Part shown: positions 3,167 to 45,241 of the stretch, piece by piece
Numbering within the stretch: position 1 is the stretch's first letter
Layout: each line of letters starts with the position of its first letter
Assembly (NCBI RefSeq): GCF_003334785.1
Contig: NZ_QOWV01000018.1
From: Escherichia coli
GTDB lineage: Bacteria; Pseudomonadota; Gammaproteobacteria; Enterobacterales; Enterobacteriaceae
Strand: one strand, 5' to 3'
Length of the DNA: 64,000 nucleotides
The notes under the pieces: model-generated
Told to the model about the DNA's origin: nothing
What the model saw: the letters and a program-made list of their open reading frames with translations, nothing else
Databases searched by the model: none
Program-made: the position numbers and the translations under genes

Positions 3167-5002
3167 CTACTCTTCGTCATCGCCATCAACATGCGCACGA
3201 ATCAGCGCCATAAACGGTTTGCCAAAGCGTTCCAGCTTGCGCATCCCAACGCCGTTAACGCTGAGCATTTCGCTGGCGGTGATCGGCATCTGTTCAGCCA
3301 TCTCAATCAAGGTTGCGTCGTTAAACACCACGTACGGCGGGACATTACTTTCATCGGCTATCGATTTACGCAGTTTGCGTAATTTGGCGAACAGTTTGCG
3401 ATCATAGTTGCCGCCGAACGATTTCTGCATCGCTTTCGGTTTGAGCGCCACGATACGCGGCACGGCAAGTTGCAAAGAGGATTCGCCGCGCAGCACCGGG
3501 CGCGCGGCCTCTGTCAGTTGTAGGGCAGAATGCTGGGCAATATTTTGCGTCACCAGGCCGAGGTGAATCAGCTGGCGGATCACGCTCACCCAATGTTCAT
3601 GGCTTTTATCACGGCCCATGCCATAGACTTTCAGTTTGTCATGACCATAGTCGCGGATACGCTGGTTATTAGCACCACGAATCACTTCCACCACATAACC
3701 CATCCCAAACCGCTGATTCACACGACCAATGGTGGAAAGGGCAATCTGAGCATCGGTTGAACCGTCGTACTGTTTCGGCGGATCGAGGCAGATATCGCAG
3801 TTCCCGCACGGCTCCTGACGCCCTTCGCCAAAATAGTTCAGCAATACCAGACGACGGCAAGTTTGCGCTTCGGCAAACGCGCCCATCGCATTGAGTTTGT
3901 GGCGCTCGATATCCTGCAACTGCCCCTGCGGCTTCTCTTCCAGACAACGGCGCAGCCACGCCATATCAGCCGGATCGTAAAACAGCATCGCTTCCGCGGG
4001 CAGGCCATCACGCCCGGCGCGTCCGGTTTCCTGATAATAGGATTCGATATTGCGCGGAATATCAAAGTGGACCACGAAGCGAACGTTTGGTTTATTGATG
4101 CCCATGCCGAACGCCACCGTCGCCACCACAATTTGCAGGTCATCGCGCTGGAATTTTTCCTGCACATCGGCGCGAACATTATTTTCCAGCCCGGCATGAT
4201 AGGCCGCCGCGCTAATTCCCTTGCTTTGCAGGCGCGCAGCGGTGTCTTCTACTTTCGCGCGGCTGTTGCAGTAGATAATGCCTGACTTACCGCGCTGTTC
4301 CTGCACGTAGCGCATCAACTGATCGAGCGGTTTGAACTTCTCCATCAGCATGTAGCGAATATTCGGACGGTCAAAACTGCTGATTTGAATCAGCGGATCG
4401 TTCAGCCCCAGCAGGCGCACGATATCCTGGCGCGTGGTGTCGTCGGCTGTGGCGGTCAGCGCCATAAACGGCAGCGTCGGGAACCGCTGGCGCAACTGAC
4501 CGAGCGCGGCATATTCCGGGCGGAAATCGTGGCCCCATTGGGAGATACAGTGCGCTTCATCAACGGCTAATAACACCGGATTCCAGTGCGCCAGATGCTC
4601 AAGAAAGTTATCCAGCATCAGGCGTTCCGGGGCGATATAAAGCAGACGAATTTGCCCGGTGCGGCAGCCTGTCATCACTTCAAGTTGCTGTTCGCGGGTT
4701 TGCGTCGAGTTAAGGCACGCCGCCGCCACGCCGTTGGCTTGCAGTTGATCCACCTGATCTTTCATCAACGAAATCAGCGGTGAAACAACCACGGTAAGGC
4801 CGTTTAGCAATAAGGCAGGGATTTGATAGCAAAGGGATTTTCCGCCACCAGTGGGCATGACGACGAGGCAATCGCGGCCGGAAAGCACAGTGTCGATAAT
4901 TTCTTCCTGGCCGGGGCGAAACTGTTGGTAGCCAAAGGTTTCTTGTAAAACCTGTTTAGCTCCGGACTCCAGATTCAACACTTCCGCCTGCGCCACATTC
5001 AC
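3167..5002 (-). CDS. recQ: ATP-dependent DNA helicase RecQ
   Basis: 611 aa ORF with DEAH box ([21 protein letters not shown]), Zn-binding cysteines and HRDC region; annotated start may be the GTG two codons downstream (4996). Confidence 0.95.
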
Positions 5003-7666: not shown

Positions 7667-8047
7667 ATGTTACGTATATTTATCCCAACATCTAACGGTA
7701 AGATTTCCAGACGTCGTTATATATTTTCATTTATTTTAATAAATTTCATTTTTGCCTTTCTTATTATCTTTTTTAACGATGGAGAAGCAGGCTTTCTTGT
7801 TATAGTCTCTACCATCGTACTCCATTATCTCGTCATCAACATGAATTGCCAGCGACTCCGTGATAGTGGTTTCATCTATATAAAAACTTATGTTTTTGGT
7901 ACATTAGCAGTATATATCATCTCTATCATCACAATGATAGCCGAAGATTTTGCCTGTTCAGGCAATGGTTCGATGATTTTTTTGATTTGTTATTTTTCCA
8001 CTTTCAGTATGCTAATGCTTGCACCTACTGATTCATCAAAACAATAG
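7667..8047 (+). CDS. yigG: small inner membrane protein YigG
   Basis: Track ORF 7607-8047 starts at TTG; internal ATG at 7667 is preceded by AAGGA and gives 126 aa; very AT-rich hydrophobic ORF. Confidence 0.6.
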
Positions 8048-8060
8048 TTATGGAGTATTT

Positions 8061-8441
8061 ATGAGTAAGGAATATATGAACGATGGTTCATTAAGTGAAA
8101 AATGGAAATACCGATTTAATTTTTATGATCAACATGGTTTTCCTGGATTCTGGGGGGCAACACCAGAATATAAAGCAGCATTTAAAGCATTAAAAGTAAG
8201 ACAACGCTTAACTATTCAAATGAATTTCATTGCTTTCTTCTGTTCCTGGATATATTTATTTGTCCTGGGGTTATGGAAAAAAGCAATTATAGTTCTATTA
8301 CTTGGTATTCTATCTCTATTTGTTGGTGCACTAATTGGCGTTAACATTCTGGGAATTGCCGTAGCAGCCTATGTTGCTGTTAACACGAACAAATGGTTCT
8401 ATGAGAAAGAGGTAAAAGGGTTAAATACCTGGAGCCTTTGA
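8061..8441 (+). CDS. yigF: small membrane protein YigF (DUF2628-like)
   Basis: Track ORF 8019-8441; internal start MSKEYMNDG gives 126 aa; AT-rich, two predicted TM segments. Confidence 0.6.
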   Translation: MSKEYMNDGSLSEKWKYRFNFYDQHGFPGFWGATPEYKAAFKALKVRQRLTIQMNFIAFFCSWIYLFVLGLWKKAIIVLLLGILSLFVGALIGVNILGIAVAAYVAVNTNKWFYEKEVKGLNTWSL

Positions 8442-21793: not shown

Positions 21794-22987
21794 ATGACGG
21801 AACAAGAAAAAACCTCCGCCGTGGTTGAAGAGACCAGGGAGGCCGTGGACACCACGTCACAACCTGTCGCAACAGAAAAAAAGAGTAAGAACAATACCGC
21901 ATTGATTCTCAGCGCGGTGGCTATCGCTATTGCTCTGGCGGCGGGCATCGGTTTGTATGGCTGGGGTAAACAACAGGCCGTCAATCAGACCGCCACCAGC
22001 GATGCCCTGGCTAACCAACTGACGGCATTGCAAAAAGCCCAGGAGAGCCAAAAAGCCGAGCTGGAAGGCATTATTAAGCAACAAGCTGCACAACTTAAGC
22101 AGGCGAATCGTCAGCAAGAAACGCTGGCAAAACAGTTGGATGAAGTCCAACAAAAGGTCGCCACCATTTCCGGCAGCGATGCTAAAACCTGGCTGCTGGC
22201 TCAGGCCGATTTTCTGGTGAAACTCGCCGGACGGAAGCTGTGGAGCGATCAGGACGTCACGACCGCTGCAGCGTTGCTGAAAAGTGCAGACGCCAGCCTG
22301 GCGGATATGAATGACCCGAGTCTGATTACCGTTCGTCGGGCAATTACCGATGATATCGCCAGCCTTTCTGCAGTATCGCAGGTGGATTATGACGGCATAA
22401 TCCTTAAGCTTAATCAGCTTTCAAATCAGGTAGATAACCTGCGTCTGGCCGATAATGACAGCGATGGTTCGCCGATGGATTCAGACGGTGAAGAGCTTTC
22501 CAGTTCCATCAGCGAATGGCGTATCAATCTGCAAAAAAGCTGGCAGAACTTTATGGACAACTTCATTACGATTCGCCGTCGTGATGACACCGCCGTACCG
22601 CTGTTAGCGCCAAATCAGGATATCTATCTGCGCGAAAATATTCGCTCTCGCCTGCTGGTCGCAGCACAAGCTGTACCGCGTCACCAGGAAGAGACTTATC
22701 GCCAGGCGCTGGAGAACGTCTCCACCTGGGTACGTGCTTACTACGATACTGATGATGCCACCACCAAAGCGTTCCTCGACGAGGTGGACCAGTTAAGCCA
22801 GCAAAATATCTCGATGGATCTTCCGGAAACCCTGCAAAGCCAGGCGATGCTGGAAAAACTGATGCAGACTCGCGTGCGTAACCTGCTGGCACAACCGGCA
22901 GCGGGGACAACGGAAGCTAAACCTGCACCTGCACCTGCACCTGCACCGCAAGCTGATACTCCGGCAGCCGCGCCGCAAGGAGAATAA
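21794..22987 (+). CDS. hemX: HemX (putative uroporphyrinogen-III C-methyltransferase, membrane-anchored coiled-coil protein)
   Basis: 397 aa ORF with one TM segment, coiled-coil region and a C-terminal Pro/Ala-rich tail containing (PA)n. Confidence 0.9.
22922..22945 (+). repeat. Perfect hexanucleotide tandem repeat (CCTGCA)x4 within the 3' end of hemX
   Basis: cctgcacctgcacctgcacctgca read directly in the sequence; encodes PAPAPAPA. Confidence 0.9.
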
Positions 22988-22989
22988 CC

Positions 22990-24186
22990 ATGCTAAAAGT
23001 GTTATTGCTCTTTGTGTTGCTGATTGCGGGGATCGTGGTTGGCCCGATGATTGCCGGCCATCAGGGTTATGTGCTGATCCAGACCGACAACTACAATATC
23101 GAAACCAGCGTCACGGGCCTGGCGATCATATTGATTCTGGCGATGGTAGTGCTGTTTGCCATTGAGTGGCTACTGCGGCGGATCTTCCGCACTGGCGCGC
23201 ACACCCGTGGGTGGTTTGTCGGACGTAAGCGTCGCCGTGCACGTAAGCAGACCGAACAGGCGCTGCTGAAACTGGCGGAAGGCGATTATCAGCAAGTTGA
23301 AAAGCTGATGGCGAAAAATGCCGATCACGCGGAACAACCGGTGGTGAACTATCTACTGGCTGCCGAAGCCGCGCAACAACGTGGTGATGAAGCACGCGCC
23401 AACCAACATCTGGAACGCGCAGCGGAGCTGGCCGGCAACGACACCATTCCGGTAGAAATCACCCGCGTACGTCTGCAACTGGCCCGTAATGAAAACCATG
23501 CTGCACGCCACGGCGTGGATAAGCTGCTGGAAGTTACGCCACGCCATCCGGAAGTATTACGTCTGGCGGAACAGGCGTATATCCGCACAGGTGCATGGAG
23601 TTCGCTGCTGGATATTATCCCATCAATGGCGAAAGCCCATGTTGGTGATGAAGAACATCGTGCAATGCTGGAACAACAGGCATGGATTGGCCTGATGGAT
23701 CAGGCGCGTGCCGATAACGGTAGCGAAGGTTTGCGTAACTGGTGGAAAAACCAAAGCCGGAAAACGCGTCATCAGGTAGCGTTGCAGGTGGCAATGGCGG
23801 AACATCTTATTGAATGTGACGATCATGATACTGCCCAGCAAATTATCATCGATGGCCTGAAACGCCAGTACGACGATCGCCTACTGCTGCCGATTCCTCG
23901 ACTGAAAACAAACAATCCGGAACAGCTGGAAAAAGTGCTGCGCCAGCAAATCAAAAACGTCGGCGATCGCCCGCTGTTGTGGAGCACACTGGGCCAGTCA
24001 CTGATGAAGCACGGAGAATGGCAGGAAGCATCGCTCGCCTTCCGCGCAGCGCTGAAACAACGTCCGGACGCCTACGATTACGCATGGCTTGCCGACGCGC
24101 TGGACAGACTGCACAAGCCGGAAGAAGCTGCAGCGATGCGTCGCGACGGTTTGATGTTAACGTTGCAGAATAACCCGCCACAGTAG
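22990..24186 (+). CDS. hemY: HemY (TPR-containing inner membrane protein of the hem operon)
   Basis: 398 aa ORF with two N-terminal TM segments; immediately follows hemX. Confidence 0.93.
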   Translation: MLKVLLLFVLLIAGIVVGPMIAGHQGYVLIQTDNYNIETSVTGLAIILILAMVVLFAIEWLLRRIFRTGAHTRGWFVGRKRRRARKQTEQALLKLAEGDYQQVEKLMAKNADHAEQPVVNYLLAAEAAQQRGDEARANQHLERAAELAGNDTIPVEITRVRLQLARNENHAARHGVDKLLEVTPRHPEVLRLAEQAYIRTGAWSSLLDIIPSMAKAHVGDEEHRAMLEQQAWIGLMDQARADNGSEGLRNWWKNQSRKTRHQVALQVAMAEHLIECDDHDTAQQIIIDGLKRQYDDRLLLPIPRLKTNNPEQLEKVLRQQIKNVGDRPLLWSTLGQSLMKHGEWQEASLAFRAALKQRPDAYDYAWLADALDRLHKPEEAAAMRRDGLMLTLQNNPPQ

Positions 24187-24233
24187 TTCCTTCTCACCCG
24201 GAGGCAAGCACCTCCGGGGCCTTCCTGATACAT

Positions 24234-24440
24234 AAAAAAACGCCTGCTCTTATTACGGAGCAGGCGTTAAAACAGGTCTGTATGACAACAAGTGGGTGCT
24301 TCACTCAACGTTGTGTCCATGGTGTCTGATGAGGCATAAGCGACATCTGTCAGTGGACGATAAGCACCGTAAACGGCTCTGCGTCATTCCGGAGTTTATG
24401 AGGCACTAAGGCGAACATAAGAGATGGAATGAGCATCTAC
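24234..24440 (-). ncRNA. glmZ: small regulatory RNA GlmZ (SraJ/RyiA), activator of glmS translation
   Basis: Reverse complement of 24234-24440 reads GTAGATGCTCATTCCATCTCTTATGTTCGCC ... AACGCCTGCTCCGTAATAAGAGCAGGCGTTTTTTT, matching my recollection of GlmZ including its intrinsic terminator; lies in the hemY-aslA intergenic region. Confidence 0.88.
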
Positions 24441-24864
24441 TCGTTTATTATGCCACAGAGAATCGGGAAATAACATCCCTTAACACTTGTTATGAGATAA
24501 TTCTGTAATCCTCTTTGCTTCCTGAGTAATAACTTCCTGAGTGAATATTTAACCTGAGCTTGATCCTACACATACTTATTATGAATGATAAAATTCATTC
24601 AATTAATAACACATATATTAATTGCCGTTAAAACTAAAAACAGCATCAATAATCAACGCGATATAATAAACCTGCCTTACATATCAACTGCGCCAGAGGT
24701 AGGATTGAAAACGCTCTCCTGATTTTCCAATTCATTTTCTGGATAAATAAATAATTTATTTTTGTCACTATTATTTATGTAATCATCCTGTCAGGGAGAG
24801 GGATCTCAATTATCAATGCTTAATTACGTCATCATTTTGATGACATGAAACCGGAGCATTTTGC

Positions 24865-26520
24865 ATGGAATTTTCGTTTTCACCCAAACGTCTTGTTGTT
24901 GCTGTCGCCGCCGCTCTTCCTCTCATGGCCAGCGCAGCAGATACCCCGTCAACTGCCACCGCACGCAAAGGCTTTGCCGGATACGATCACCCAAACCAGT
25001 ATCTGGTTAAACCGGCGACCACTATTGCCGACAATATGATGCCAGTAATGCAGCATCCGGCGCAGGATAAAGAAACCCAGCAGAAGCTGGCAGAACTTGA
25101 GAAAAAAACCGGTAAGAAACCGAATGTGGTTGTTTTCTTGCTGGACGATGTGGGCTGGATGGACGTCGGTTTTAACGGTGGCGGCGTGGCGGTGGGTAAC
25201 CCTACACCAGATATCGACGCCGTTGCCAGCCAGGGGCTGATTTTAACTTCGGCGTATTCTCAACCAAGCTCTTCCCCAACCCGCGCCACCATTCTCACCG
25301 GACAATACTCCATCCACCACGGCATTCTGATGCCGCCAATGTACGGGCAACCGGGCGGGCTGCAAGGGTTAACCACGCTGCCGCAGTTGCTGCACGATCA
25401 GGGCTACGTCACTCAGGCCATCGGAAAATGGCATATGGGGGAAAACAAAGAGTCGCAGCCGCAGAACGTTGGCTTTGATGATTTCCGTGGCTTTAACTCG
25501 GTGTCTGATATGTACACCGAATGGCGCGACGTTCACGTCAATCCGGAAGTGGCCCTGAGTCCGGACCGTTCTGAATACATCAAGCAATTACCGTTCAGCA
25601 AAGATGACGTTCATGCGGTGCGCGGCGGCGAACAACAGGCCATTGCCGACATTACGCCGAAATATATGGAAGATCTGGATCAACGCTGGATGGACTATGG
25701 CGTTAAGTTCCTCGACAAGATGGCGAAGAGCGATAAACCATTCTTCCTCTACTACGGCACTCGTGGCTGCCACTTCGATAACTACCCAAATGCGAAATAT
25801 GCGGGTAGCTCTCCGGCACGCACCTCGTATGGCGACTGCATGGTGGAGATGAACGATGTGTTCGCTAATCTGTATAAAACACTGGAGAAAAACGGTCAGC
25901 TTGATAACACGCTGATCGTCTTTACCTCCGATAACGGACCGGAAGCCGAAGTACCGCCGCACGGACGCACCCCGTTCCGTGGTGCGAAAGGTTCGACCTG
26001 GGAAGGCGGCGTTCGCGTACCGACTTTCGTTTACTGGAAAGGGATGATCCAACCGCGTAAATCTGACGGTATTGTCGATCTGGCAGATCTCTTCCCTACC
26101 GCGCTGGATCTGGCAGGGCATCCTGGAGCGAAAGTGGCGAATTTAGTGCCGAAAACCACCTTTATCGATGGTGTGGACCAGACATCCTTCTTCCTGGGAA
26201 CAAATGGTCAGTCTAACCGTAAGGCCGAGCACTACTTCCTCAACGGTAAACTCGCTGCTGTGCGTATGGATGAGTTCAAGTATCACGTCCTGATTCAGCA
26301 ACCTTACGCTTATACCCAGAGCGGATATCAGGGTGGATTCACCGGCACAGTAATGCAAACGGCGGGATCGTCGGTGTTTAACCTCTACACCGATCCGCAG
26401 GAAAGCGACTCCATCGGCGTGCGCCATATTCCGATGGGTGTACCGCTACAGACCGAAATGCACGCGTATATGGAGATCCTGAAAAAATATCCACCACGCG
26501 CGCAGATTAAATCTGACTAA
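24865..26520 (+). CDS. aslA: arylsulfatase (type I sulfatase)
   Basis: 551 aa ORF with signal peptide and sulfatase signature around [15 protein letters not shown]. Confidence 0.93.
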
Positions 26521-26548
26521 GCCGGCGCTATCGCTGAGATCTGCCTTT

Positions 26549-26653
<105 letters not shown>

Positions 26654-26678
26654 ATCAACCGCAGGCGGCCGCCGATTT

Positions 26679-27914
26679 CTACTTACTCACCACCAGCAAA
26701 TGCGCATGCATAATGTCGCTGGCCGGGCGACCGTGCGCCAGCAAATCAGCCATTGCTTTAAGATATGGCGGTAGATGGCGGAAATAACGCTGATACCCGG
26801 CACACAAATAATTCAGTCCCGGTTTGCCGCTGGCATCGAGCATGAAGCGGTGTTTCGGGCAGCCTCCCCAGCACGCTTTTAACACGTTACAACTGCGACA
26901 CTGCGCCGGTAACTGCTTAAATTTATCTTCACCAAACGCCTGCTGTTGCGGGGAATCGATCATTTCTGCAATTGTTTGCTGGTGCATATTCCCCAGCCGA
27001 TATTGCGGATAAACATAGTGATCACAGGCGTAAACGTCGCCGTTGTGCTCAACAATCACCGAGCGCCCACAGGTTGGCTGATGATGGCAAACCGCACCCG
27101 GCGCACCGACAAAATTGGCAAACGCCCATTCGATATTCATCACGAAAATCTTGCCGACGTCGCGTTTGATCCAGTGGTCGAATATCGCCACCAGAAACTC
27201 ACCGAACTCCTCGGGGCGCACCGACCATTCCGTTAGCTCACCCTGAATATCACCAGGCGCATGTAACTTAAGTCCATCGCGGGCAGTTGTTTCATCAGCC
27301 AGGCGCTCGACCACCGGAATAAACTGGATGAATTCGACTCCCGCATCGCACAAAAAATCATATACCTGCAACGGTTGCTGCGCGCTGGTGCGATTAACGC
27401 AGACCAGCACGTTATAGTCGACATGATGTTTTTGCAGGAGCGTCAGGGCACGCATCACCAGCTTATGCGTGGGTCTGCCACCTTTAGTCACGCGATATTG
27501 ATTGTGGATCTCAGGCGGGCCATCCAGCGATAAACCAACAAGAAAATGATGCTCCGCGAGAAACGCGCACCATTCGTCATCCAGCAGCACGCCGTTAGTC
27601 TGGAAGCTGTTACTTATCTTCCTGCCAGCACCATATTTCGCCTGTAGCGCTACGGCACGGCGGTAAAACGCCAGCCCGAGTAGCGTTGGTTCGCCGCCCT
27701 GCCAGGTAAAAGCCACTTCGTTTTGCGGTTCGCTGGCAGCGATATAGTGACGGACATACGCTTCCAGCGTGTCATCGTCCATATGCGTGACTGGCTTTTC
27801 GCGGTAAAGGGATTGTTTTTCGAGATAAAAACAGTAGTCACAGTTCAGATTACAATCGGAACCGCTCGGTTTCGCCATCACATGAAAAGCACGCGTTGGA
27901 ACCTGTTGCAGCAT
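26679..27914 (-). CDS. aslB: anaerobic sulfatase-maturating enzyme homologue (radical SAM)
   Basis: Canonical start MLQQVPTRAFHVMAKP within track ORF; radical SAM CxxxCxxC motif (CNLNCDYC); 411 aa. Confidence 0.92.
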   Translation of the reverse strand: MLQQVPTRAFHVMAKPSGSDCNLNCDYCFYLEKQSLYREKPVTHMDDDTLEAYVRHYIAASEPQNEVAFTWQGGEPTLLGLAFYRRAVALQAKYGAGRKISNSFQTNGVLLDDEWCAFLAEHHFLVGLSLDGPPEIHNQYRVTKGGRPTHKLVMRALTLLQKHHVDYNVLVCVNRTSAQQPLQVYDFLCDAGVEFIQFIPVVERLADETTARDGLKLHAPGDIQGELTEWSVRPEEFGEFLVAIFDHWIKRDVGKIFVMNIEWAFANFVGAPGAVCHHQPTCGRSVIVEHNGDVYACDHYVYPQYRLGNMHQQTIAEMIDSPQQQAFGEDKFKQLPAQCRSCNVLKACWGGCPKHRFMLDASGKPGLNYLCAGYQRYFRHLPPYLKAMADLLAHGRPASDIMHAHLLVVSK

Positions 27915-28028
27915 GGTCGCTCCTTGCCTGAAGTCATCCTTCAATACGTTAAGGGCGAAATCATACCGTGGGGCAATGAGTTATTACGGGCGTTTATTGC
28001 GAAGGGAGGGTGACGAAATGCACAGAAA

Positions 28029-28060: not shown

Positions 28061-28137
28061 TGGTCGGCGAGAGAGGATTCGAACCTCCGACCCACTGGTC
28101 CCAAACCAGTTGCGCTACCAAGCTGCGCTACTCGCCG
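28061..28137 (-). tRNA. proM: tRNA-Pro (anticodon UGG)
   Basis: Reverse complement CGGCGAGTAGCGCAGCTTGGTAGCGCAACTGGTTTGGGACCAGTGGGTCGGAGGTTCGAATCCTCTCTCGCCGACCA, 77 nt with encoded CCA. Confidence 0.97.
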
Positions 28138-28179
28138 AAATACTGCTTTTTGAATTTTTAGTTCAATTCTTTAAAGTCG

Positions 28180-28266
28180 TGGTGCGAGGGGGGGGACTTG
28201 AACCCCCACGTCCGTAAGGACACTAACACCTGAAGCTAGCGCGTCTACCAATTCCGCCACCTTCGC
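28180..28266 (-). tRNA. leuT: tRNA-Leu (anticodon CAG)
   Basis: Reverse complement GCGAAGGTGGCGGAATTGGTAGACGCGCTAGCTTCAGGTGTTAGTGTCCTTACGGACGTGGGGGTTCAAGTCCCCCCCCTCGCACCA, 87 nt. Confidence 0.97.
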
Positions 28267-28286
28267 ATTGTCACAACTTCTAATAA

Positions 28287-28363
28287 TGGGGTGGCTAATG
28301 GGATTCGAACCCACGACAACTGGAATCACAATCCAGGGCTCTACCAACTGAGCTATAGCCACC
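28287..28363 (-). tRNA. hisR: tRNA-His (anticodon GUG) with extra 5' G
   Basis: Reverse complement GGTGGCTATAGCTCAGTTGGTAGAGCCCTGGATTGTGATTCCAGTTGTCGTGGGTTCGAATCCCATTAGCCACCCCA. Confidence 0.97.
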
Positions 28364-28420
28364 ACTACAAATCTTGTTACGCGGTATTACTACCACCGCA
28401 GCTCAAGCGCCGGGACTAAA

Positions 28421-28497
<77 letters not shown>

Positions 28498-44781: not shown

Positions 44782-45111
44782 TTACGCCAGGTTAGCGTCG
44801 AGGAACTCTTTCAACTGACCTTTAGACAGTGCACCCACTTTGGTTGCCGCCACTTCACCGTTTTTGAACAGCAGCAGAGTCGGGATACCACGGATGCCAT
44901 ATTTCGGCGCAGTGCCAGGGTTTTGATCGATGTTCAGTTTTGCAACGGTCAGTTTGCCCTGATATTCGTCAGCGATTTCATCCAGAATCGGGGCGATCAT
45001 TTTGCACGGACCGCACCACTCTGCCCAGAAATCGACGAGGATCGCCCCGTCCGCTTTGAGTACATCCGTGTCAAAACTGTCGTCAGTCAGGTGAATAATT
45101 TTATCGCTCAT
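44782..45111 (-). CDS. trxA: thioredoxin 1
   Basis: Canonical start [13 protein letters not shown] (Met 36 of track ORF) gives 109 aa; active site WCGPC. Confidence 0.97.
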
Positions 45112-45241
45112 ATATAACTCCACAGGAATAAGCCTGGCGTGTTGGTTTCGTTGTTGGTGTAACATTAACCAACTAAAGGTTGACTTTATTTCACCGGATA
45201 CGCTTTCGTAAAGCAATAGTAAGCTGATATTCTACCACACT

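Follow-up and report, generated by a model that had tools for sequence, protein, structure and literature searches.

The GlmZ small RNA gene and the AT-rich glmZ–aslA spacer in an Escherichia coli genome

We analyzed a 64,000-nt stretch of Escherichia coli DNA (contig NZ_QOWV01000018.1 of RefSeq assembly GCF_003334785.1), hereafter called the window, with a focus on the small RNA (sRNA) gene glmZ and the AT-rich tract between it and aslA. The hemY gene (22990–24186, plus strand; ORF list and K-12 annotation) stops 47 nt from the 3′ end of glmZ (24234–24440, minus strand; Rfam and K-12 annotation). A spacer (24441–24864) then leads to the divergent aslA (24865–26520, plus strand), an ORF whose identical DNA is annotated in RefSeq as arylsulfatase AslA. 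The aslA translation start region (24853–24867, plus strand) comprises a GGAG Shine–Dalgarno sequence at 24853–24856 and the ATG start codon at 24865. Farther along are aslB (26679–27944, minus strand; ORF list) and the argX-hisR-leuT-proM tRNA cluster (28064–28497). In the MG1655 annotation, hemY, glmZ (b4456), aslA, and aslB are arranged and oriented as they are here.

The segment that separates hemY from aslA (24187–24864) is 100% identical to MG1655 (NC_000913.3), and the literature on K-12 can therefore be transferred to it. The window is not K-12 itself, since hemX (21794–22987, plus strand) encodes 397 amino acids here and 393 in K-12. In strain PSS-16 the protein has 401 amino acids, and the size variation of hemX is a length polymorphism within the gene. 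A 901-nt query around glmZ and the spacer found a match in all 5426 of the 5426 complete E. coli genomes in our collection, and 5425 of these have a glmZ copy of at least 99% identity. Some strains carry a 591-bp CDS between hemY and glmZ, where the window has 47 bp; in strain S6 (NZ_CP107134.1) this CDS, annotated as the hypothetical protein WP_001260226.1, occupies positions 437–1027 of the locus, after the hemY stop and before the glmZ terminator. The S6 copy of glmZ also has the only SNP that we saw in the RNA, at the equivalent of window position 24337.

A cmscan search of the whole window against Rfam identified GlmZ_SraJ (RF00083) at 24234–24440 on the minus strand with 218.4 bits (E = 3.4e-56; gathering score, 60 bits). 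The match spans positions 1–214 of the 214-position model, has no flagged non-canonical pairs, and is 207 nt long. Together with the MG1655 identity, it defines glmZ as the gene of the 207-nt primary GlmZ sRNA, with +1 at the G of 24440. An earlier sequence-only reading had proposed a 207-nt GlmZ on this strand with a 3′ hairpin and T-run; the Rfam coordinates are the same as those proposed, and the hairpin proved to be an 11-bp terminator stem followed by TTTTTTT.

Rfam families were also matched elsewhere in the window. TrxA_thermometer was found at 45082–45181 (minus strand; 78.8 bits versus a gathering score of 58), in the 5′ UTR of trxA. Rev39_5p_UTR, described as a 5′ UTR of soft-rot Enterobacteriaceae, was matched at 60334–60626 (minus strand; 152.9 bits); here it represents the leader–attenuator region (ilvL) of the ilvXGMEDA operon, with the leader peptide MTALLRVISLVVISVVVIIIPPCGAALGRGKA starting from 60552.

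The three-module architecture of the RNA (stem-loop 1, stem-loop 2, linker, and terminator) is present, with all Rfam consensus pairs formed. Stem-loop 1 (SL1; nt 1–65, 24376–24440, minus strand) is defined by the Rfam consensus structure, and the minimum free energy (MFE) and centroid folds agree with it. Stem-loop 2 (SL2; nt 73–146, 24295–24368, minus strand), in which GGUGCUU pairs with AAGCACC, and the single-stranded linker (nt 147–172, 24269–24294, minus strand) were both read from the Rfam structure line. The Rho-independent terminator (nt 173–207, 24234–24268, minus strand), supported by a terminator scan, an inverted repeat, and the Rfam alignment, consists of an 11-bp stem, an 8-nt loop, and a U7 tail. 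Its stem (24268–24239, minus strand) has seven G–C pairs among the 11 bp and is followed by seven T residues. This was the single terminator-like site in a scan of 24100–24950. The MFE of GlmZ is −60.8 kcal/mol (z = −3.33 versus dinucleotide shuffles), and both the MFE and centroid folds recover SL1 and the terminator.

By these measures the gene is the GlmZ of K-12 (SraJ/RyiA, b4456, RF00083), with identical nucleotide sequence, promoter, terminator, and neighbors and no difference in either the RNA or the spacer. A related RNA is the paralogous decoy sRNA GlmY (RF00128), which has homologous 5′ stem-loops that bind RapZ and belongs to the same Rfam clan. Unlike GlmZ, GlmY does not contain the glmS-pairing linker, and its locus is elsewhere, adjoining glrK/qseE; E. 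coli GlmY is transcribed from overlapping σ54 and σ70 promoters under GlrR, whereas glmZ here has σ70 only. We rejected the notion that we are dealing with the paralogue GlmY or with a decayed, nonfunctional GlmZ as having next to no probability: although the shared clan did entail suppression of an overlapping, lower-scoring clan match, the GlmZ model won the clan competition at full length with 218 bits, the RNA is identical to K-12 glmZ, the hemY-convergent position is the conserved synteny of glmZ, and the linker with its glmS-pairing nucleotides is intact. The convergent arrangement of GlmZ and hemY is found here, and almost every species locus listed in the comparison described below likewise has hemY downstream of GlmZ. 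We found nothing that speaks against the GlmZ assignment.

The function of this RNA is well described in K-12. The 207-nt primary transcript is processed to GlmZ*, of about 151–155 nt (PMC4152352, PMC2377431, PMC6602413). GlmZ has three stem-loops, of which SL1 and SL2 form the RapZ-binding part, with the central SL2 determining both the binding of RapZ and the positioning of RNase E; RNase E cleaves 6–7 nt past SL2, within the linker, to generate GlmZ* (PMC6602413). The glmS-pairing nucleotides of the linker tell GlmZ from GlmY (PMC6602413, PMC4152352). With Hfq, full-length GlmZ opens an inhibitory hairpin over the glmS Shine–Dalgarno sequence and GlmS synthesis rises, and GlmY acts as a RapZ decoy at low glucosamine-6-phosphate (PMC4152352).

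GlmZ expression, RapZ binding, RNase E processing, and Hfq-dependent glmS activation are thus established for the K-12 sequence, and the identical copy in the window would be expected to share them. A constitutive 207-nt RNA would be produced from a single σ70 promoter with an extended −10 element at 24441–24480. In the presence of Hfq, the linker between SL2 and the terminator would pair with the glmS leader, opening the hairpin at the ribosome-binding site and raising GlmS. When glucosamine-6-phosphate is plentiful, RapZ would sit on SL1 and SL2 and recruit RNase E, whose cut 6–7 nt beyond SL2 would remove the pairing site; GlmY would counteract this process. A duplex prediction for the linker and the K-12 glmS leader gave −22.9 kcal/mol and recovered the expected CUUGUUGUC/GACAACG and AGACCUG/CAGGUU segments, but it is not statistically distinctive, with 71 of 1000 shuffled linkers scoring equally well. 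Because 7% of shuffles match the linker duplex, we rested glmS pairing on identity to the validated RNA. A duplex run with full-length GlmZ and the glmS leader returned a meaningless global duplex.

In spite of this detailed knowledge, glmZ is invisible to an ORF track, is listed under no feature in PGAP-annotated E. coli genomes, and is given only 172 nt in the K-12 RefSeq record (NC_000913.3 3986432–3986603), 35 nt short of the 207-nt terminator-inclusive transcript. An ORF-based reading misses GlmZ, and an Rfam pass recovers its exact extent.

The glmZ promoter occupies the glmZ-proximal edge of the spacer. The sequence upstream of +1 (24440) on the minus strand is TGTGGCATAATAAACGA, followed by the +1 G. 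A −10 hexamer CATAAT is found at −12 to −7 (24447–24452), and a TG at −15/−14 (24454–24455) makes it an extended −10 (TGgCATAAT). The probable −35 is ATGTTA at −36 to −31 (24471–24476), which is separated from the −10 by an 18-bp spacer and has 3 of 6 matches to TTGACA. These hexamers, which we read from the sequence, define a core σ70 promoter from −40 to −1 (24441–24480, minus strand) whose function was demonstrated by Göpel et al. in a dissection of the same aslA–glmZ spacer (PMC3045617). In that work, DNA beyond −40 was dispensable for glmZ, whereas removal of DNA upstream of −20 abolished or drastically reduced expression, as did mutation of the three consensus-matching −35 bases or of half of the −10 (PMC3045617). 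GlrR did not bind a −424 to +32 glmZ fragment, and ΔglrR and ΔrpoN had no effect; the promoter is single, constitutive, and σ70-dependent (PMC3045617). The sequence-only reading had placed the glmZ promoter in this spacer, and deletions and point mutations locate it there, between −40 and +1 (PMC3045617). Because sequence upstream of −40 is dispensable, only 24441–24480 of the 424-bp tract belongs to glmZ.

Our own motif searches are in line with this assignment. The −10 and −35 elements both lie within 40 nt of +1, the arrangement of the E. coli-type (group III) σ70-only promoter, and neither the σ54 motif TGGCAC-N5-TGC nor the GlrR site TGTCN10GACA is found in E. coli glmZ loci. A consensus σ70 scan did not report the proven glmZ promoter, because by our own count it has 8 of 12 consensus matches and the cut-off of the scanner was 9 of 12. 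Shimada et al. predicted a different glmZ promoter, TTGAGA-17-GATGAT (PMC3946193); this site is approximately 340 bp away from the true start of glmZ and is at odds with the deletion results.

The spacer as a whole (24441–24864) is 424 bp long and has 32.5% GC compared with 52.4% for the window, and 0.33% of 424-bp windows are as AT-rich. The sole comparable AT-rich tract in the 64,000 nt is coding and comprises yigG and yigF (7667–8441). Both genes, yigG at 7667–8047 (32.8% GC) and yigF at 8061–8441 (34.9% GC), are identical to those of K-12. The spacer contains no ORF of at least 60 amino acids, the longest being 45 amino acids on the plus strand and 40 on the minus strand. The description of this tract of roughly 420 bp as extremely AT-rich and devoid of ORFs is therefore borne out, with every ORF at or below 45 amino acids.

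We considered whether these short frames, or a second sRNA, might represent an unannotated gene in the spacer, a proposal that we regard as very improbable and have rejected. ORFs of 23–45 amino acids do exist, including the 45-amino-acid ORF at 24585–24722 (plus strand); RNA polymerase holoenzyme binds the spacer in vitro; and a perfect TATAAT (24662–24667) sits inside a conserved block. The ORFs themselves, however, are not conserved: B2-type E. coli and E. albertii both have ATA in place of the ATG of the 45-amino-acid ORF, and in E. albertii the 40-amino-acid minus-strand ORF is cut short by a premature stop. Apart from GlmZ, no Rfam family matches the spacer at E ≤ 1, and the lone terminator-like site in the scanned region is that of glmZ.

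The remaining approximately 384 bp of the spacer, which glmZ does not need, make up the region upstream of aslA, the divergent gene. We assign 24481–24864 (plus strand) to this role, presumably with the promoter, operators, and 5′ UTR of aslA, on the basis of its dispensability for glmZ, SELEX binding, and aslA derepression. RpoD holoenzyme binds the aslA–glmZ spacer in Genomic SELEX (PMC3946193). One candidate aslA promoter, TTAACA-18-TGTAAT, is predicted in Table 1 of that study (PMC3946193); we located it by reading the sequence at 24480–24509 (plus strand), back to back with the glmZ promoter and with a predicted leader of approximately 350 nt. A second candidate, TACACA-16-TAAAAT at 24567–24594, came from the consensus scan, and a third, the perfect TATAAT at 24662–24667, is a possible −10 within the block conserved in Escherichia. 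Promoter-like sites are not enriched in the scanned region (3 versus 2.2 expected), and the scan cannot place the aslA promoter. The literature searched for a mapped aslA transcription start gave predictions only. The earlier proposal of an aslA promoter within the spacer is thus a reasonable inference supported by RpoD SELEX binding (PMC3946193), although we found no mapped aslA start site. A run-off microarray table lists c4719, the CFT073 homologue of aslA, with a value of 2.54, which we kept out of the argument.

Close to the gene, at 24828–24844, the spacer contains a 7-bp perfect inverted repeat, GTCATCA-TTT-TGATGAC, located 9 nt upstream of the aslA Shine–Dalgarno sequence. In E. albertii both arms are changed (GACATCA...TGATGTC) and the palindrome is kept; B2-type E. 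coli strains have one or two mismatches. This element could be an operator or a 5′-UTR hairpin.

The AT-richness of the spacer had also led the sequence-only reading to propose silencing by a nucleoid protein. The spacer is flagged as an H-NS site by in vitro Genomic SELEX (PMC3946193), and expression of aslA can be followed in the normalized RNA-seq counts of Supplementary Table 1 of a 2025 Micro-C study (PMC12460168). Wild-type counts for aslA are about 78–127. They are 116–181 in Δhns (log2FC +0.71, padj 4.6e-4) and 62–82 in ΔstpA (log2FC −0.26, padj not significant), and reach 561–659 in the Δhns ΔstpA double mutant (log2FC +2.78, padj 6e-144) and 538–642 with netropsin (log2FC +2.68, padj 1.4e-128) (PMC12460168). 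These values correspond to an increase of 1.6-fold in Δhns alone and of approximately 7-fold in the double mutant and likewise with netropsin (PMC12460168), although the larger effect could be indirect. In the same study, aslA is flagged neither as overlapping an H-NS hairpin (its HIN column is blank) nor as horizontally transferred (PMC12460168).

A search for the H-NS high-affinity motif TCGATAAATT with up to two mismatches found one site in the spacer, at 24740–24749, with two mismatches. Across the window there are 63 such sites versus 58 expected by chance, and the motif is therefore unenriched and uninformative. The silencing proposal is supported because in vitro H-NS binding is matched by an expression response of aslA, but silencing cannot cover the whole spacer, since glmZ is constitutively expressed at one of its edges; nor is the nucleation motif enriched. 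That repression of aslA by H-NS and StpA is direct is our inference.

The spacer shares low GC content and in vitro H-NS binding with other AT-rich E. coli promoter regions silenced by H-NS and StpA, and aslA has the low basal expression and the derepression in Δhns ΔstpA and with netropsin that are common to such regions. It differs from them in that the GC content of aslA and aslB is normal (approximately 50–59% in 200-bp windows), the effect of Δhns on aslA is small, and a constitutive promoter is located at one edge of the tract. Most likely, the 384-bp remainder carries the promoter of aslA as well as a segment to which H-NS and StpA bind, keeping aslA expression low. We are highly confident in the overall reading, in which the E. 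coli glmZ of the window is the K-12 copy with a constitutive σ70 promoter, the rest of the spacer is the upstream region of aslA and is likely bound by H-NS and StpA, and the spacer forms the edge of an aslA–aslB block.

An alternative explanation holds that the aslAB rearrangement left junction DNA under little constraint, which would make up all of the spacer except the 40-bp promoter of glmZ and a short one for aslA; the AT-richness and H-NS binding of the spacer would then be incidental. Several features fit this view, beginning with the dispensability for glmZ of all DNA upstream of −40 and the unenriched H-NS motif. The spacer diverges much faster than glmZ within E. coli: in 5423 matching genomes, 3034 spacers are at least 99% identical to ours and 1942 are at 90–95%, a range far outside the ≥99% identity of the glmZ copies. 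Substitutions cluster at 24551–24690, the most variable part among E. coli lineages in the alignment. A repeat search found a 15-bp tandem duplication, CTTCCTGAGTAATAA/CTTCCTGAGTGAATA (24518–24547, plus strand), approximately 80–105 bp upstream of the glmZ +1; it is polymorphic in E. coli, with strain KOr019 having a single copy. Natural IS1 insertions in the spacer and its use by engineers point in the same direction, as several laboratories treat the aslA–glmZ intergenic region as a neutral site for integration. The spacer both accepts and attracts insertions.

Against this view, a comparison of E. coli, E. albertii, and a divergent Escherichia genome showed good conservation of blocks at about 24630–24735 and 24740–24864, with the aslA-proximal approximately 230 bp and a central block standing out, and aslA responds strongly to removal of H-NS and StpA and to netropsin. 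We consider the junction-DNA explanation rather unlikely as it stands. It is compatible with much of the explanation that we favor, and the difference is one of degree. The natural IS1 insertions were seen in strains XJW9B277 (positions 1045–1742 of its locus) and PSS-16 (positions 3407–4104 of its locus); in PSS-16 the insertion is accompanied by loss of the 5′ part of aslA, which is annotated as a pseudogene.

Finally, we compared the locus across species. A pattern taken from the conserved GlmZ core retrieved at least 120 genome loci, and among the matches listed we used 85 species loci in which the GlmZ 5′ end and at least 60 nt of upstream sequence were present. A σ54 −24/−12 motif lies within 40 nt of +1 in 74 of these 85 loci, and 59 of the 74, again among the matches listed, also carry at least one perfect GlrR site, TGTCN10GACA. 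These counts reproduce and extend the published classification of glmZ promoters (PMC3045617). The σ54/GlrR/IHF-dependent glmZ of Yersinia, Salmonella, Enterobacter, and Citrobacter has the RNA gene and the hemY synteny in common with E. coli, and the first approximately 17 nt upstream of +1, with the −10-like sequences TGTGCAATAAT and TGTGGCATAAT, can be aligned between E. coli and the σ54-type promoters. E. coli glmZ differs from its σ54-type counterparts in having neither the TGGCAC −24 element nor the TGTCN10GACA GlrR sites. Upstream, it has 424 bp of 32.5% GC and aslA–aslB in place of the 135–813 bp that lead to the tRNA operon in the σ54-type species.

Homology of E. coli with Salmonella, Citrobacter, and Enterobacter breaks off approximately 17 nt upstream of the glmZ +1 and is regained near 28022, at the terminator of the tRNA operon. 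Among the matches listed, 60 of 64 species loci have the tRNA cluster 135–813 bp upstream of glmZ, whereas in Escherichia and Superficieibacter the distance is approximately 3.6 kb. These homology breakpoints and tRNA distances show that the AT-rich spacer together with aslA–aslB is an indel in place of the σ54/GlrR enhancer region. The spacer is the glmZ-proximal edge of a block of approximately 3.6 kb, and at its position most Enterobacterales have a short, σ54/GlrR/IHF-controlled glmZ upstream region abutting the argX-hisR-leuT-proM operon. No relics of GlrR sites were found between aslB and the tRNA operon.

Among the matches listed, aslA divergently adjoins glmZ in five loci, from E. albertii, a divergent Escherichia, Pseudocitrobacter, Superficieibacter, and Kluyvera. 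A σ54 motif and a GlrR site are absent from all five (0/5 each), and their spacers have 28–33% GC. The aslAB indel is thus a possible structural reason for the loss of σ54/GlrR control by E. coli glmZ. The link is unproven, because the motif has also been lost where aslA is not adjacent (Raoultella, Citrobacter youngae, Phytobacter, and a Pluralibacter MAG), because Raoultella has short stretches in common with the −35 region of E. coli, and because the five aslA-adjacent genomes are not phylogenetically independent. In the literature that we consulted on this promoter, we did not find a causal link between the aslAB block and the rewiring of glmZ stated.

Five loci of the Citrobacter freundii complex form a separate case, with approximately 135 bp from the tRNA-operon terminator to glmZ. 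The −24/−12 element is kept in three of the five and degenerate in two, and none of the five (0/5) has a perfect GlrR site, suggesting that this complex lost the upstream activating sequences in an event of its own.

GlmZ and the central facts on the spacer were already known from published work on the identical K-12 sequence. GlmZ is a textbook sRNA, and the spacer is already on record as a divergent promoter region flagged for H-NS; the importance of these results therefore lies mainly in annotation quality, with the comparative picture of the aslAB block as a mildly useful by-product. In that picture, to which we give somewhat less than an even chance, the approximately 3.6-kb block (about 24458–28021), flanked by the −10 region of glmZ and the tRNA-operon terminator, may have replaced the ancestral enhancer in Escherichia, Kluyvera, Pseudocitrobacter, and Superficieibacter and supplied the −35 element of glmZ; glmZ would thereby have passed from control by envelope signals to constitutive expression, with silencing by H-NS and StpA affecting the aslA side only.
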